Shown: positions 124 to 8,107 of the stretch, in pieces
Numbering within the stretch: position 1 is the first letter of the stretch
How the letters are laid out: each line of letters begins with the position of its first letter
Sequence record: NC_070873.1
DNA length: 64,000 nucleotides
Source: Escherichia phage St11Ph5
Reading direction: 5' to 3' (one strand)
Translations under genes and position numbers: made by a program
The notes under the pieces: generated by a model
Told to the model about the DNA's origin: nothing
Seen by the model: the letters and a program-made list of their open reading frames with translations, nothing else
Databases searched by the model: none

Positions 124-957
124 ATGCCAACTTTGAAAGTAGGTTTTAACAAAACCACTAATGTCGCAACTGTACTGGATGCAGGTGGTTCTATCCCGGG
201 TGGTTCCGTAGAAATAGGTACTTTTGTACACCCGGATGCTACCTACCCTGATAGTTTAGTTATCTTTCATGGTGTTCGTGATCTGCTGTATAAATGCTCT
301 GCTAAAAACCCTGCTGAAGAGGGTTTCTGGCCTAACAACATTGTGGATATGCAGTCTATCTCTATTGATATGAAAGCTACTCCACGACTGACTATTGCTA
401 CCAAACTGCCTCGTGTAGTATCTGCTATCGAAGGTGAAGACATCAACTGGCATGTTGATGTAGCAGGTGGTAAAGCACCATTTACTTATAAATGGCAATT
501 CAAAGCTAATACTGCTGGTGCAGCATTCGCTGATATTAGCTCCAGCACTAACCCATCCGCTGCTACTGCAACATTGACCCTTAATGATGTAACAGCTGCT
601 TCCGCTGGTACTTATAAAGTGATTGCTACTGATGCTAATGGAACCACGGTAGAAGATGAGTCGTTGCTGGCTGTAGGCTACTACGAAGCAAGCTCCCTGG
701 TAGCTACTCCTGATTCACTGGCTCTGTCTGTTGCTGCTGATATTGCTGCTGGTAAGACCGTAACAATTGTTGCTATGCCTGTTGGTTCTTCTGCTGGTAC
801 TTTGTCTATCAAGACCGCTCCAGATTCTGCTCGTGCTACGGCTACCATTGCTGGTAATGTACTGACAGTTAAGCCAGTGGCTGCTGGTGATGCTACTTCT
901 GTAGTAGTTACCAACGGTACTGTCGATGTAACTATCTCTGTTACTGTTGCAGAGTAA
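124..957 (+). CDS. Ig-like domain protein, probable capsid decoration protein (N4 gp17-like position)
   Basis: ORF 79..957; preferred start ATG at 124 with GAGGA RBS about 8 nt upstream; Thr/Ala/Val-rich beta-type sequence with AGTYKV Ig-like motif; flanked by terminators. Confidence 0.5.
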   Translation: MPTLKVGFNKTTNVATVLDAGGSIPGGSVEIGTFVHPDATYPDSLVIFHGVRDLLYKCSAKNPAEEGFWPNNIVDMQSISIDMKATPRLTIATKLPRVVSAIEGEDINWHVDVAGGKAPFTYKWQFKANTAGAAFADISSSTNPSAATATLTLNDVTAASAGTYKVIATDANGTTVEDESLLAVGYYEASSLVATPDSLALSVAADIAAGKTVTIVAMPVGSSAGTLSIKTAPDSARATATIAGNVLTVKPVAAGDATSVVVTNGTVDVTISVTVAE

Positions 958-979
958 GAGTATTTCTTTTTGTGGTTAT

Positions 980-1010
980 AGCCCTCCTTAGCGAGGGCTT
1001 TCTTGTATCT
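980..1010 (+). terminator. Rho-independent terminator
   Basis: Stem AGCCCTC / GAGGGCT, loop CTTAGC, followed by T-rich tract. Confidence 0.5.
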
Positions 1011-1024
1011 ATAGGAGAGTAAAA

Positions 1025-1339
1025 ATGGCGCAAAAATTGCGTGTATGGCACATTCCCCAAGTGCCAATGAAGGCATTTCAAGTAGAGACTAATAGTCTTC
1101 AGGAAGCTGTTAAGATTAAGAATGCGTTAGCAGATTATGATCTATTCCAATATGAGAACAATGTCAAAGGCGATTATGCTAATGCTAACGGTATTGAGAT
1201 GTGGGATGAGACTATCTCCGATCAAGAACTAGTGGAGATGGGTTTAGAAGACCGTTGGGTAGATTGGTATATTGAAACTGAAGATGGTTTCTTTGATGAC
1301 CCAGAAGAGTATCTGAATTATCTAATCAAGCAAGTATGA
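1025..1339 (+). CDS. hypothetical acidic protein
   Basis: 104-aa ORF with AGGAG RBS upstream; followed by terminator. Confidence 0.55.
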   Translation: MAQKLRVWHIPQVPMKAFQVETNSLQEAVKIKNALADYDLFQYENNVKGDYANANGIEMWDETISDQELVEMGLEDRWVDWYIETEDGFFDDPEEYLNYLIKQV

Positions 1340-1385
1340 TTGCTTTATTTGGGGTTATAAACCCTGAAATGAAACCCTCAAGTTT

Positions 1386-1415
1386 GACCTCCCTATTAAA
1401 GGGAGGTCTTTTTTT
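1386..1415 (+). terminator. Rho-independent terminator
   Basis: Stem GACCTCCC / GGGAGGTC, loop TATTAAA, followed by TTTTTTT. Confidence 0.55.
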
Positions 1416-1440
1416 GACTTAAACATTCTGGAGCCAGGAA

Positions 1441-1653
1441 ATGTATAAAGAGATTGCATTCTTCTCATTCTTGCTAGGTGGTTTAATAGGTGCAGGATTT
1501 GTAGCTATTTCTAATACCTACTTTGGTTCTACTCCAAATTCTGTAACACAAACCCTCAAGCATGAATGTGAATTAAATATCCCTCGTAATCAAAACTGTG
1601 TAATGCAGTTCGTACCGGAGAAAAATGAATATCCACAATCTACATTTGGTTGA
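1441..1653 (+). CDS. hypothetical small membrane protein
   Basis: 70-aa ORF, N-terminal hydrophobic segment FFSFLLGGLIGAGFVAI; GGA before ATG. Confidence 0.4.
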   Translation: MYKEIAFFSFLLGGLIGAGFVAISNTYFGSTPNSVTQTLKHECELNIPRNQNCVMQFVPEKNEYPQSTFG

Positions 1654-1885
1654 GAAACTGTATGAAGAATACAATGACAACCGACAGCAATTAGCTAGTT
1701 TGAAGAAGTCACCACATATGGTGAAAGTATCATTCAATGGTACGGATTTAGGACCGCAAGCTCGTACAAGAATACTTCCTGAACTGCTGTCATTTTATCA
1801 AAAGAGGATTGCTGTCTTAGAAAAACGCTTTGAGCATTTATGTGTAGATTTATCACCACTCCCAGATGAAGGGGAAGATGAGTGA
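1625..1885 (+). CDS. hypothetical protein
   Basis: 86-aa ORF, start overlaps preceding ORF end. Confidence 0.4.
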   Translation: MNIHNLHLVEKLYEEYNDNRQQLASLKKSPHMVKVSFNGTDLGPQARTRILPELLSFYQKRIAVLEKRFEHLCVDLSPLPDEGEDE

Positions 1886-2067
1886 AATTAACCCAGTCCC
1901 AAGCAATCTTCCTTCGTATGGTTCAAGGTGGCTCTGCCACCAGCAACCGTAATAACAAAACCGCACAGTCCCTTAAGAAGCTGGGCTTAGTTCAGTTCAA
2001 TGCTGGTCTTGGGTGGTCATTAACCCTTATCGGTGTACTTAAACTCAATGAAATGAAAGGTAACTAA
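1882..2067 (+). CDS. hypothetical protein
   Basis: 61-aa ORF with ATGA stop/start overlap with upstream ORF. Confidence 0.35.
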   Translation: MKLTQSQAIFLRMVQGGSATSNRNNKTAQSLKKLGLVQFNAGLGWSLTLIGVLKLNEMKGN

Positions 2068-2397
2068 ATGAAAACTTTACTTAAAGGTATTGCAGTAGCT
2101 GCACTGATAGCTTTAGCTCCAAATGCACAAGCAGTTAAACCAGAACCAATTCTGGAAGGTGCTCAGGCTTATCTGGATGACACTCGTGATGCATTCGGAC
2201 AAGGATTCTTCATGGGCAGTATGATCTCTTACATCGAGAACACTAATAACTGTGTTCCAGATGGTATGAAGTATTCAGACATTCTGCCTAAGATTGCCAA
2301 AGTAGTTATTTATGACTCTGCAATCCTCAAACTGAAGAATACATCTCAAATTGTCGTGTACTCCGTACACAAGGCATATCCCTGCACTAAATCTTAA
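2068..2397 (+). CDS. hypothetical secreted protein
   Basis: 109 aa; N-terminal signal-peptide-like MKTLLKGIAVAALIALAPNAQA. Confidence 0.5.
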   Translation: MKTLLKGIAVAALIALAPNAQAVKPEPILEGAQAYLDDTRDAFGQGFFMGSMISYIENTNNCVPDGMKYSDILPKIAKVVIYDSAILKLKNTSQIVVYSVHKAYPCTKS

Positions 2398-2431
2398 TCA
2401 GTAATCCCATTAGCTTTAGGAGAGTAAGTAA

Positions 2432-3484
2432 ATGGCAAGCATTGACTCCTTGACTGTATGTAATTCACGTCAAGCTCGTAACTTTATTATCCGTGCTCTG
2501 AAAGCAGGTAACGTACCGTTCCTGACTTCATCACCAGGTATGGGTAAATCTGCAATTATTCGTTCTATTGCAGAAGAATTTGGTATGAAGCTGATAGACC
2601 ATCGTCTGTCTACTTCTGCTCCGGAAGACCTTTCTGGCTTACCATTCCGTAATGGCGACCGTGCAGAATTTATTCCTTTCGCTGACCTATTCCCTATTGA
2701 AGGGGATGAAGTACCGGAAGGTTATAATGGCTGGCTCCTGTTCCTTGATGAGTTCAACTCAGCTAAGAAAGAAGTGGTAGCTGCTGCATACAAGCTGATT
2801 CTCGACCGTATGACTGGTCAGAAAAAGCTTCATCCTAATGTGATGATTGTCTGTGCTGGTAACAAAGCCACTGACCGTGCCATTGTTAACCCACTAGGTA
2901 CTGCAATGCAGTCTCGTGTGGTTCACTTCGAAATGGAACTTAACTTCGACATCTTTGTTGAAGATGTAATGATTCCTCAGCAATGGGATGAACGTCTGGT
3001 TGCATTCTTACATGCTAATCCTGGTTATCTGCATGACTTCGACCCAGCACATAAGAATAAAACATTCTGTTGCCCTCGTACCTGGGACTTTGTTAACAAA
3101 GACCTCAAGAACCTGCCAGAAGGTGCTCTGCCTGATGAAGATTCTCTTTACTACGCAGGACACGTTACTGCTGGTAAAGCTACAGAGTTTGTTCAGTTTA
3201 CTCAGGTATACAATCGTATCATTACGATTGAGAAGGTGGTCAAAGACCCATTGGGCTGTGCACTACCCGATGATAACAACCTGTGTTGGGCTACCGTTAA
3301 CCACCTGGCTAACAAAACTACTGAAGAAAACTTCGCTGATGTTCTTCAGTACATTGAACGCTTTAAAACGTTCACCCATAAGATTCTGTACTTCCGTACA
3401 GTAGGCAGAGCATTACCAGAACTACAGGCTACCCCTGAATGGCGTAAGGCTGCTGCTAATATCTCTCGTTACATTCACGGATAA
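2432..3484 (+). CDS. MoxR/CobS-like AAA+ ATPase
   Basis: Walker A SSPGMGKS, Walker B LLFLDEFN, sensor-like VCAGN; 350 aa. Confidence 0.75.
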   Translation: MASIDSLTVCNSRQARNFIIRALKAGNVPFLTSSPGMGKSAIIRSIAEEFGMKLIDHRLSTSAPEDLSGLPFRNGDRAEFIPFADLFPIEGDEVPEGYNGWLLFLDEFNSAKKEVVAAAYKLILDRMTGQKKLHPNVMIVCAGNKATDRAIVNPLGTAMQSRVVHFEMELNFDIFVEDVMIPQQWDERLVAFLHANPGYLHDFDPAHKNKTFCCPRTWDFVNKDLKNLPEGALPDEDSLYYAGHVTAGKATEFVQFTQVYNRIITIEKVVKDPLGCALPDDNNLCWATVNHLANKTTEENFADVLQYIERFKTFTHKILYFRTVGRALPELQATPEWRKAAANISRYIHG

Positions 3485-3491
3485 TCACAAC

Positions 3492-4667
3492 ATGAACCAA
3501 TTTCCTCAGCACACACTTAGTGATGAACAACTCATGCGTGAGTATGACCGTATTCAGGCGCAGGCGTTTCTCGGACGCAGTGCTGCGTTCTTTGGTTCAT
3601 TGCTGTGTAGTCTTAAGTTCTCATGGAAACGTGAGGATTGCCCCACTGCATGTACTGATGGGATAGAACTCCATTTCAACCCAGACTTCTTTATCTGGAT
3701 GTGTCCAGATGCAAGAGAAACAGTATTAATGCATGAACTATGGCATGTAGCATATCTACATGACATCCGTCGTGGAAGCCGTGACCCGGAAATCTGGAAC
3801 CAGGCTTGTGACCACTTCATTAACCTTCAGTTAGAAGAAGATGGTTACAAGTTCACTGGCATTGACAAAGGCATTTGCAAAGACCCTCAATATAAAGGAT
3901 GGGTCGAAGAAGACATCTACGATGACCTGATGAAGAACCCTCAGAAAAGGCAGAAGCCCTCGGGGGGTGCTGGAGCAGGTCTTGCTGGCGACATGAAATC
4001 CCCCACTTCGGGGCAGTCCCAGGGTGCTGTTGTCAACAACGTAGTACGTGCAATGCAAAGCCAGAAAATGGCTGGTGGACAGATGCCCGGTAAGGGTGCT
4101 GGTCGTATGGAAGAGGTTATTACCCAATTCCTTAAACCAGTGGTTCCCTGGCAGGAAGTTCTGATGAACTTCTTTACCGACATTGATGACACACACTATA
4201 CGTGGGCCAGACCTAATCGTCGTTACACTGATATCTATCTACCTTCCCTGGAAGATGATGAAGGACGTTTACGTCACTTAGCCTACTTTGAGGATGTGTC
4301 TGGTTCTATTAGTAGTGCTGACTCTCTGCGTTTTAACTCAGAGGTTGCCTACGTTAAGAGCCAATTCAATCCTAAGAAGATGTCCTTAATTACCTTCGAC
4401 GATATTATCCAGGAAGAGATAGACATCACTGAAGAAGATACTTTTGAAGAGATTAAGATTACAGGTCGTGGTGGTACAAGCCTTGTGCCTGTACGAGATT
4501 GGATTATTAAGAATAAACCAACCGCTGCAATCATATTCTCCGATATGTATGTTCGCCCAATGGAAGAATTGCCATTTGATATCCCTATCATCTGGTGTGT
4601 TCTGAATAATCCTAATGCTACCGTACCTTTTGGGGAGGTAGTTCATATCCCTAAAGGAATGAAATAA
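3492..4667 (+). CDS. VWA-like partner protein with N-terminal HExxH motif (CobT-like)
   Basis: 391 aa directly downstream of AAA ATPase; LMHELWHV motif near N-terminus, Gly-rich linker; assignment by resemblance to MoxR-VWA pairs. Confidence 0.55.
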   Translation: MNQFPQHTLSDEQLMREYDRIQAQAFLGRSAAFFGSLLCSLKFSWKREDCPTACTDGIELHFNPDFFIWMCPDARETVLMHELWHVAYLHDIRRGSRDPEIWNQACDHFINLQLEEDGYKFTGIDKGICKDPQYKGWVEEDIYDDLMKNPQKRQKPSGGAGAGLAGDMKSPTSGQSQGAVVNNVVRAMQSQKMAGGQMPGKGAGRMEEVITQFLKPVVPWQEVLMNFFTDIDDTHYTWARPNRRYTDIYLPSLEDDEGRLRHLAYFEDVSGSISSADSLRFNSEVAYVKSQFNPKKMSLITFDDIIQEEIDITEEDTFEEIKITGRGGTSLVPVRDWIIKNKPTAAIIFSDMYVRPMEELPFDIPIIWCVLNNPNATVPFGEVVHIPKGMK

Positions 4668-5182: not shown

Positions 5183-5392
5183 ATGTCAGTATTTCAAGTA
5201 ACTCATGCAACCTCAGATGTACGCTTAACCATTAATGCTGCAAATGTAATTGCAGTAGAACAGATTCCACAGTCTGACCATGCACGCGTCATATTTGTAG
5301 ATAATAACTATATAGAAACCAAAGAAACCTATCGTTCAGTACGTAATTACCTGAAGAAAGCACTTGCTTCTGCAAGCAAAGACGCTGAGTAA
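5183..5392 (+). CDS. hypothetical protein
   Basis: 69-aa ORF with AGGAAA upstream. Confidence 0.4.
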   Translation: MSVFQVTHATSDVRLTINAANVIAVEQIPQSDHARVIFVDNNYIETKETYRSVRNYLKKALASASKDAE

Positions 5393-5403
5393 GTAGCTGC
5401 CTA

Positions 5404-5430
5404 AATAGCCCAGCATTGTTGGGCTATTTG
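5404..5430 (+). terminator. terminator-like hairpin
   Basis: 9-bp stem AATAGCCCA / TGGGCTATT, loop GCATTGT; weak T-tract. Confidence 0.35.
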
Positions 5431-5465
5431 TGAAGAAACTAACTCAACCCCACATAGGAACCATC

Positions 5466-5717
5466 ATGGAATCTTTAGCAGCAATCCTTGTTATGTTGTT
5501 TGTATTAGCTGTATACCTTATCCCTACTATCATTGCTTTTGCACGAGGCCATGCCTCTAAGTGGGGCATTGGTGTGCTAAACATCGTATTAGGTTGGTCA
5601 CTGGTATTCTGGGTAGTAGCACTGATTTGGGCACTGTCCAATAAAGGAACTACAATCGTTAACGTTGGTAGTGGTAACCAGTACAACGTGTCCCAAACGA
5701 GCAGTAAAGCAGAGTAA
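5466..5717 (+). CDS. superinfection-immunity-like small membrane protein
   Basis: Two predicted TM helices; IPTIIAFARG ... LGWSLVFWVVALIWAL pattern; start ATG 5466 with AGGAA RBS (ORF extends to 5430). Confidence 0.5.
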   Translation: MESLAAILVMLFVLAVYLIPTIIAFARGHASKWGIGVLNIVLGWSLVFWVVALIWALSNKGTTIVNVGSGNQYNVSQTSSKAE

Positions 5718-5789
5718 CTAACCGAAGTATCCCCAAGAGGGTACTTCTGGAAGTTACTTCCAGCTCATTGCTTATCCATCTCCTAACCC

Positions 5790-5820
5790 AAGCCCACCTA
5801 ACCCGTGGGCTTTTTTATTT
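5790..5820 (+). terminator. Rho-independent terminator
   Basis: Stem AAGCCCAC / GTGGGCTT followed by TTTTTTATTT. Confidence 0.55.
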
Positions 5821-5848
5821 AAAGGTACTTCTTGTGACAAGTAGACGA

Positions 5849-6212
5849 ATGGTAAGTCTATCCTACAAGGACTGGACTTCGGTAAGCTGGAACAAACTGC
5901 AATGCTTGCTTTAGGTAAAACTATCCATGACCAAGTGGAAAGTGAAATTGAAGCAGATATTTATACAAGAATGCAGGTTCTTATTAAGAAAAATGGGTTA
6001 CTACCAGATCCCTTCATTCATACATTCCCCCAGAACCTCATCTGAAATCTAAGGTAGACCGAATCATAGATAAGTTCTGGCTTAACCCATGTAAGGATGA
6101 CACGCAACTTTATCTGGCTCAAATACAAAAGAATCCTCGTACTAAGGATGTATTCAAAGGCAAGAGCACTACCCATCACTACCCCTGGTATAGAAGAGGT
6201 AGTAAATACTAA
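5849..6212 (+). pseudogene. possible frame-disrupted gene (three short ORFs in successive -1 frames)
   Basis: ORFs 5849-5914, 5902-6045 and 5988-6212 overlap, each -1 relative to the previous; no single ORF over 75 codons; frame-0 piece has no ATG. Confidence 0.25.
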
Positions 6213-6655
6213 TGCGTATTCCATTCCTAAGAAAAAGAGAACGAAATCCTGTTCTTTATAATAAAGGCATAGAGGATGAGTATGAACTCAACCGTAAAGC
6301 TCGTTCCTACACAACAAAATTATTCATGGGGACTAAAAACCCTGATAGATTATTGGACTTTGTTTTTGAACAAGTCTTTATCATATACAGCTTAGCTATG
6401 TCTGCTGGTTCACAAGAAGTGAGTGATAAGGCAAGAGATGCTCTCTGTATGCTCCGTAAAGAGTATGAAGCCCTCATGTATGAAGACTTATACTCCTTTA
6501 AAAAAGAAACCGCTGTAGCGTGTTCTGTGGCTCTTACTGAAGGTGTAGCAGTATTACAGGAACTACCTCGTAGTGAGTTTAAGCTGGTATACGTTCAGGT
6601 TAAGAAAATCACAGAGACGAGAAGTGGTATCACCAACTATCTAAGGTCATTCTAA
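6212..6655 (+). CDS. hypothetical protein
   Basis: 147-aa ORF; start overlaps upstream stop (TAATG); ATGA overlap with thyX downstream. Confidence 0.5.
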   Translation: MRIPFLRKRERNPVLYNKGIEDEYELNRKARSYTTKLFMGTKNPDRLLDFVFEQVFIIYSLAMSAGSQEVSDKARDALCMLRKEYEALMYEDLYSFKKETAVACSVALTEGVAVLQELPRSEFKLVYVQVKKITETRSGITNYLRSF

Positions 6656-7599: not shown

Positions 7600-7834
7600 A
7601 AAACTAGCTCTATATGCAATGCTAACTAGTGGCTTACTCCCATTAATTTTCGCATACAAAGTCGCCTTTGTATTAGAAACAGATATGCAGTTCATTCGAG
7701 CCAGTATTCTGTTATTAATAAGTGAGATTGGTTTGTGGTGTCTTTATTATATTGCTCGTGACTATGAAGCAATTCGCGAGCAAGAAGAAGTGAAAAAACA
7801 AATGATACGTTTTGTAGAACAAAATCGTAAGTAA
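7580..7834 (+). CDS. hypothetical membrane protein
   Basis: 84-aa ORF with hydrophobic segments; overlaps thyX 3-prime end; followed by terminator. Confidence 0.4.
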   Translation: MRLLLNEKLALYAMLTSGLLPLIFAYKVAFVLETDMQFIRASILLLISEIGLWCLYYIARDYEAIREQEEVKKQMIRFVEQNRK

Positions 7835-7840
7835 ACCTAA

Positions 7841-7866
7841 GACCTCCTCCGGGAGGTCTTTTTTTG
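7841..7866 (+). terminator. Rho-independent terminator
   Basis: Stem GACCTCC / GGAGGTC, loop TCCG, followed by TTTTTTTT. Confidence 0.55.
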
Positions 7867-7894
7867 GTTTCAATTAACTCTTTTAGGAGGGCAT

Positions 7895-8107
7895 ATGCCT
7901 GCTAAATACCGTATCAAAGACACACCTGTAATGTGTGAGGGTGAGAAAGGTGACATTGTATATGCCTGTATCCAGGATGATTTCAATGCTGCTCAAATGC
8001 TAACCCAAATGACCAATACACTGCATGTATCTGTAACACTGGACCCTACCGGTGACTATCCATGCTTCCCTATTCCTGCCCATAACCTGGAGCAAATCCA
8101 TGATTAA
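7895..8107 (+). CDS. hypothetical protein
   Basis: 70-aa ORF with AGGAGG RBS. Confidence 0.45.
   Translation: MPAKYRIKDTPVMCEGEKGDIVYACIQDDFNAAQMLTQMTNTLHVSVTLDPTGDYPCFPIPAHNLEQIHD

Follow-up and report, generated by a model that had tools for sequence, protein, structure and literature searches.

The closest known counterpart of the protein described here is Imm of phage T4, the 83-residue product (UniProt P08986) of an early gene (NC_000866, 26373–26624) and the founding member of the Pfam family PF14373, Imm_superinfect. The name of this family is based on a single characterised member. According to a recent preprint, the portion of the tape measure protein gp29 that contains the helical bundle and the transmembrane region co-purifies with T4 Imm, the substitutions R33A and W50A in Imm reduce exclusion, and Imm is proposed to stop the inner-membrane conduit from forming (bioRxiv 10.64898/2026.03.06.709160). 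N4-like podoviruses deliver their genomes via the ejected proteins gp52, gp51 and gp50 (PMC13434306).

In the following, we describe an Imm homolog in an N4-like phage. The window, by which we mean the whole stretch of DNA that was analysed, comprises 64,000 nucleotides of Escherichia phage St11Ph5 (NC_070873.1), a Gamaleyavirus (G7C/Bp4-like; Schitoviridae, Enquatrovirinae). Its section 4600–6700 matches 57 phage records at 80–95% nucleotide identity (best 91.8%), nearly all of which are Escherichia and Shigella gamaleyaviruses of the G7C/Bp4/IME11/ECBP1 type. From 5' to 3', this part of the genome carries genes for a gp24-like ATPase, a gp25-like protein, dCTP deaminase, a gp27-like protein of 69 residues, the Imm-like protein, gp28-like and gp29-like proteins and ThyX, in the same order as the middle-gene region of N4. 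A preliminary description had placed the gene in a replication module, which is a fair account of a nucleotide-metabolism and replication (middle-gene) block with dCTP deaminase upstream and ThyX downstream. The features referred to below are as follows (window coordinates or residue numbers):

2432–3484 and 3492–4667: gp24-like ATPase gene and gp25-like gene, both intact in the window
5402–5430, plus strand: stable 13-bp hairpin after the gp27-like gene, with the core stem AGCCCA/TGGGCT and a loop that varies among relatives
5455–5460, plus strand: Shine-Dalgarno-like TAGGAA, 5 nt before the ATG and invariant in 10 relatives
5466–5717, plus strand: Imm-like coding sequence, 83 residues plus stop (ATG at 5466, TAA at 5715–5717)
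Residues 16–57 of the Imm-like protein: Imm_superinfect domain
Residues 58–83 of the Imm-like protein: polar C-terminal tail
5712–5759, plus strand: composite stem-loop, the predicted minimum free energy (MFE) and consensus structure
5747–5763, plus strand: hairpin B, CTGGAAG-TTA-CTTCCAG, with a 7-bp stem and a 3-nt loop
5764–5789, plus strand: nearly invariant CU-rich spacer CTCATTGCTTATCCATCTCCTAACCC, of which the part CATTGCTTA is common to N4
5790–5820, plus strand: intrinsic terminator AAGCCCAC-CTAACCC-GTGGGCTT plus T-tract, homologous to the terminator between N4 gp27 and gp28

Some of the neighbouring genes are disrupted in individual records. The gp24-like and gp25-like genes are each broken into several coding sequences in the Bp4 record (359–3068 of the Bp4 region), where the pieces of the latter bear the RefSeq label 'HNH endonuclease'; frameshift errors in that record probably explain the split. 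In the window, the homolog of N4 gp28 (Bp4 orf61, SP5M gp33) appears broken (5834–6212). It has GTG instead of ATG at 5834–5836 and, when compared with three relatives, lacks 1 nt after 5847 and another after 5991, and just short open reading frames are left (5768–5914 and 5902–6045); it is either a pseudogene or the product of an assembly error.

The Imm-like open reading frame, together with both peptides quoted in the preliminary description, was found on the plus strand exactly where that description had put it, and encodes the protein MESLAAILVMLFVLAVYLIPTIIAFARGHASKWGIGVLNIVLGWSLVFWVVALIWALSNKGTTIVNVGSGNQYNVSQTSSKAE. An alternative start, GTG at 5430, would give 95 residues; it was rejected because it lacks a ribosome-binding site, falls within the flank of the upstream hairpin and is not conserved, being GAG in ECBP1. 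The gene is real and its core is under purifying selection: compared with nine gamaleyaviruses, pN/pS in the core is 0.04–0.15, and 98% of second but 57% of third codon positions are invariant.

The protein had been described as small and two-helical, and both hydropathy and structure prediction agree with this. Kyte-Doolittle windows above 1.6 span approximately residues 1–27 and 33–59, two hydrophobic segments separated by R27-G-H-A-S-K32, and AlphaFold2, run on a 34-sequence alignment, predicts helices at 2–27 and 32–59 and a disordered tail with modest confidence (pLDDT 66.6). The inter-helix loop carries the positive charges R27, H29 and K32. We infer that the protein resides in the inner membrane, with its N-terminus predicted to lie in the periplasm. 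Comparison of the model with BFVD in Foldseek gave a best E-value of 1.7, a result that says little in the case of a helical hairpin, and a sequence search of the PDB found no Imm-like chain, only spurious lectin matches (E 0.03). NCBIfam gave nothing meaningful.

The resemblance to superinfection immunity proteins, which had been noticed from the sequence and for which a profile search had been recommended, is borne out strongly by such searches and by direct alignment with T4 Imm. The protein matches PF14373 over the full length of the model (positions 1–42 of 42) with 61.5 bits (cutoff 27.9, E 7e-17), and PHROG 1039, 'immunity to superinfection', with 2e-28; T4 Imm itself attains 58.2 bits with the same Pfam model. 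In a tblastn search of 50,697 phage records, it found 1007, including the annotated imm genes of T-even-like phages (MN01, VR26, Mineola and others) as well as sequences from Acinetobacter obolenskviruses, Salmonella and Escherichia siphoviruses and mycobacteriophages. We are therefore nearly certain that it belongs to the Imm_superinfect/T4 Imm family. The assignment, secure as it is, is already part of the public annotation and thus not new, since NCBI lists the identical protein as 'putative membrane immunity protein [Escherichia phage St11Ph5]' and gives its relatives in Bp4, Moo19, SP5M and others the same label. In the literature, we found no paper in which PF14373 or the term 'superinfection immunity protein' is connected with the Schitoviridae.

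Within the genus, the same gene is found at the same position in St11Ph5, Bp4 (orf62, 'gp27.1'), Moo19, SP5M (gp32), IME11 and ECBP1; the St11Ph5 protein is identical to that of the window, and those of the other gamaleyaviruses share 70–99% identity with it. Residues 1–61 are nearly fixed among these relatives. The tail that follows (window 5649–5714) is a mosaic across the genus, giving rise to variants of 67, 80, 82, 83 and 86 residues; the window copy corresponds to the 86-residue type minus QSQ and ends in ...SSKAE. Such a pattern would fit a tail that determines specificity, or one that is dispensable. The Bp4 copy is shortened by a frameshift. Outside phages, a single-sequence scan of bacterial genomes yielded five loci with an Imm-like match in metagenome-assembled genomes (MAGs), with the open reading frames at about 4016–4201 and 4001–4210 in two of the extracted loci, and one of the bacterial copies is situated 2.4 kb from a phage-type integrase.

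In a pairwise BLASTP alignment, the window protein and T4 Imm are 31% identical, with 60% positives, across 45 residues without gaps (E 4e-9), and T4 Imm, used as a tblastn query against the window, matches a single locus (5511–5645, E 7e-6); in a multiple alignment, the resemblance runs over the full length. Common to both are the start ME(S/T)L and the residues Y17, P20, R27-G28, S31, W49 and W55, and a tail motif, Q-x-x-I-V/I, recurs in the window protein, T4, MN01 and AbP2. The two T4 residues at which substitutions reduce exclusion, R33 and W50, align with R27 and W44 in the BLASTP alignment. R27 is invariant in all alignments that we made; W44 does not vary in the set of 34 close homologs and hardly varies in another alignment, in which one sequence has L. 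Of all the evidence, the retention of both residues speaks most strongly for a function like that of T4 Imm.

By analogy with T4 Imm, it seems to us probable, though far from certain, that the protein acts in exclusion at the inner-membrane step of genome delivery. The gene is genuine and presumably expressed, and its product, homologous to T4 Imm over the full length, would be a small inner-membrane protein that binds the membrane-inserting part of the channel-forming ejection protein of an incoming phage and so makes the infected cell refractory to later phages. That related phages in particular would be blocked is an assumption. As candidate targets, we consider the N4-type inner-membrane complex or the tape measure of T-even-like competitors. 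To our knowledge, podoviruses have no tape measure protein, and in a tblastn search, no T4 gp29-like sequence was detectable in the window (best E 0.75). As the window phage is a podovirus, an own tape measure cannot be the target, and the mechanism described for T4 Imm is not literally applicable to the exclusion of its own kind; if its own kind is excluded, the partner must therefore differ from that of T4 Imm. A tape-measure-type target, if kept, would instead mean the exclusion of unrelated competitors.

We tentatively entertain the possibility that the Imm fold has either been retargeted to the N4-type ejectosome or is used against competitors that bear a tape measure. If retargeted, it would meet the hydrophobic C-terminus of gp51 or the N-terminal domain of gp50 at the inner membrane, and Imm would represent a general, re-programmable blocker of channel insertion. 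If directed across families, it would shield cells infected by the gamaleyavirus against T-even-like phages or other competitors with a tape measure. The mosaic, fast-changing C-terminal tail could be a determinant of specificity.

Alternatively, the protein may be a true member of the family with another role, for instance in membrane permeability or energetics or in the modulation of a host membrane protein, in which case the family name would be misleading for this phage. Besides the lack of a tape measure, the known T4 target class, several findings are in line with such a role: PADLOC has no match for the protein; in the literature, no exclusion phenotype is reported for any N4-like phage; and some relatives lie in chromosomal neighbourhoods that are not of prophage type. 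For example, one Imm-like open reading frame on a 2.9-Mb gammaproteobacterial contig has genes for sugar-binding, oxidoreductase, PQQ-dehydrogenase and MFS proteins as neighbours, and no prophage signature was seen around it. Since the family thus occurs in an ordinary chromosomal context, an Imm_superinfect domain need not always mean exclusion. We nevertheless consider a non-exclusion role in the window phage rather unlikely, given the full-length similarity to T4 Imm, the retention of both T4 exclusion residues and the broad occurrence of the family among phages of many hosts, lytic as well as temperate, which fits a phage-versus-phage role.

N4 itself has a gene annotated as 'superinfection exclusion, similar to P22 gp17' (gp18, 7668–7982), which belongs to a different family than Imm; despite this annotation, N4 is described in the literature as having no characterised exclusion system.

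The surroundings of the gene offer some indication of how a gamaleyavirus may have come by it. It had been described as flanked by its own terminators, and this holds only in part. The downstream element is canonical, with an 8-bp stem (5790–5797/5805–5812) that includes five GC pairs and is followed by T6, and it is annotated as a terminator in SP5M. The upstream hairpin (5402–5430) is followed by TTTGTG and thus lacks a proper U-tract; it was not called by a terminator scan, is not annotated in SP5M and is a weak terminator at best. Moreover, both elements have counterparts in N4, where no imm is found between gp27 and gp28. There, the two genes are separated by a spacer of 113 nt, which comprises a hairpin 13–14 nt after the gp27 stop, a TGGAAATTCC segment, CATTGCTTA and the terminator GCCCAC...GTGGGC-T6-AATTA, and which aligns with 5385–5440 of the window on the left and with 5745–5825 on the right. 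Hence, the two phages have in common an alignable segment resembling hairpin B, the CATTGCTTA spacer, the terminator and the position of the first hairpin; the N4 spacer differs in being free of coding sequence and in the stem sequence of its first hairpin, which is completely different from that at 5402–5430. As counterparts of both elements exist in the imm-less N4, the flanking hairpin and the terminator are ancestral to the spacer and not the gene's own.

The comparison indicates that a gamaleyavirus ancestor gained imm by insertion into an N4-type gp27–gp28 spacer, with the cassette landing between the pre-existing hairpin and the pre-existing terminator. From its position, the cassette is most likely transcribed together with the middle genes, with termination at 5790–5820. 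GAGTAA and, after it, a long imperfect inverted repeat are found at both 3' ends (5386–5415/5417–5446 and 5713–5732/5739–5758), which faintly suggests that imm may have been inserted by recombination between similar sequences.

The non-coding stretch downstream of the gene is more constant than synonymous sites. Among 10 gamaleyaviruses, 90% of the columns in 5747–5818 are invariant, compared with 57% of the third codon positions of the adjacent gene, and the stretch is under some constraint of its own, be it for terminator function, for the stability of RNA 3' ends or as homology for the exchange of modules. In the window, the module of hairpin, spacer and terminator lies between two exact copies of a 9-nt sequence in direct orientation, GGTACTTCT (5740–5748 and 5824–5832); this repeat was not found in the aligned relatives. 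A search of 5300–6300 against Rfam returned only sub-threshold chance matches (mir-2831, E 0.15; Trp_leader, E 0.2).

Hairpin B, to which the preliminary description had drawn attention, is present exactly at 5747–5763, but is no special feature of the Imm-like gene. As a bare hairpin, it is unremarkable, because perfect hairpins with a 7-bp stem and a 3-nt loop occur in the window at chance level (5 observed, versus 4.4 ± 2.1 in first-order Markov simulations). A core of 6 bp (5748–5753/5757–5762) is invariant in 10 relatives, while the seventh pair, C5747–G5763, is present in two of them. Neither the MFE fold of 5712–5825 (z = −5.3) nor the consensus fold of the 10 relatives makes use of it; both contain the composite stem-loop instead, whose outer helix (5712–5719/5752–5759) takes in the imm stop codon, encloses an inner hairpin A (5724–5732/5739–5747) and is mutually exclusive with hairpin B. 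In the alignment of the 10 relatives, the outer helix pairs at 100%, and the two changes in it, each on one side, leave the pairing intact. In hairpin A, two pairs are changed on both sides, in the same two genomes, for which reason they may represent a single evolutionary event; base 5747 pairs with 5724 in all 10 (U–G in eight, G–C in two). In this small sample of low divergence, we lean towards the composite stem over hairpin B, but only lean.

Hairpin B might still be read as a promoter, either an early one for the N4 virion RNA polymerase (vRNAP) or a middle one in the style of LUZ7, from which transcription would either give a short RNA that stops at the terminator 30 nt downstream or read through into the next gene. 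The geometry would allow it: vRNAP promoters of N4 are hairpins with stems of 5–7 bp and 3-nt loops (PMC4496689), middle promoters of LUZ7 are hairpins with stems of at least 6 bp and loops of 3–4 nt (PMC9163698), and hairpin B has a stem of 7 bp in the window and of 6 bp in most relatives, a loop of 3 nt and a location in the stretch that is more invariant than synonymous sites. The resemblance ends there, and we regard a promoter as very unlikely. In N4, the vRNAP promoter hairpins (positions 96, 565 and 4554) read ..GC-T(C/T)C-GC.. followed by TT(T/A)TGG, and the gamaleyavirus SP5M has its own at 86, 900, 1160 and 5700. A strict GC-T(C/T)C-GC core followed by (T)ATGG is common to the promoter hairpins of both phages, and in both, one of these hairpins lies directly upstream of the RNAPII subunit genes. 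No site with this GC-TYC-GC/(T)ATGG signature was found in the window. Furthermore, a vRNAP promoter needs a purine at −11, G at −10, G at −8 and C at +1 of the template, and such promoters are restricted to the left genome end (PMC4496689). Hairpin B offers these bases on neither strand, its loop being TTA, or TAA when read from the opposite strand, and its closing bases AG/CT. It thus agrees with the N4 vRNAP promoters in stem and loop size, and differs from them in loop, closing pair, initiation motif and genome position, and was rejected as one on this basis. As to the middle type, N4, a member of the same subfamily, relies on sequence motifs and not on hairpins (PMC9163698). In addition, the seventh pair is missing in eight of the 10 relatives, base 5747 covaries with 5724, and the terminator follows 27 nt after the hairpin. 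A repeated promoter motif was likewise rejected, since even a search that allowed three mismatches found no second copy of the hairpin sequence in the window.

Least likely of all, and to be discounted almost entirely, is that the gene encodes a holin, antiholin or other lysis-timing protein, as small phage membrane proteins of this size with two hydrophobic helices often do; it was rejected on its position in the middle nucleotide-metabolism block, far from the lysis cassette (genes gp60–63 in N4), and on its specific assignment by Pfam and PHROG to Imm and to no holin family, and G7C moreover shows no lysis inhibition (PMC12642591).

As it stands, the assignment confirms the existing database annotation and adds little to it. 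Its added value comes from two papers of 2026, on the binding of T4 Imm to the tape measure (bioRxiv 10.64898/2026.03.06.709160) and on the structure of the N4 ejectosome gp50/gp51/gp52 (PMC13434306). In their light, the occurrence of an Imm homolog where no tape measure exists bears on the question whether the Imm fold is specific for tape measures or a general blocker of inner-membrane channels, and the target of this homolog in a phage that lacks the sole known class of Imm targets is the point worth an experiment. The gene could supply the so far uncharacterised superinfection exclusion function of N4-like phages and, in phage cocktails, a gene of this kind predicts interference between co-applied phages.

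Compared with known systems, the protein most resembles T4 Imm: both have 83 residues, two hydrophobic helices, an R-G-x-x-S loop between them, many W residues in the second helix and a polar tail, and both genes lie among genes of DNA metabolism. They differ in that just 31% of the residues in the core are identical, in that the window gene is part of an N4-type middle region, unlike the early T4 imm, and in the phages themselves, T4 being a myovirus whose Imm binds the tape measure gp29 and the window phage a podovirus that has none. HK97 gp15, for which the tape measure has likewise been proposed as the target, and P22 SieA, an inner-membrane protein that blocks the passage of DNA, belong to different families; what they would share with the Imm-like protein is the proposed principle, a small inner-membrane protein that blocks genome translocation.
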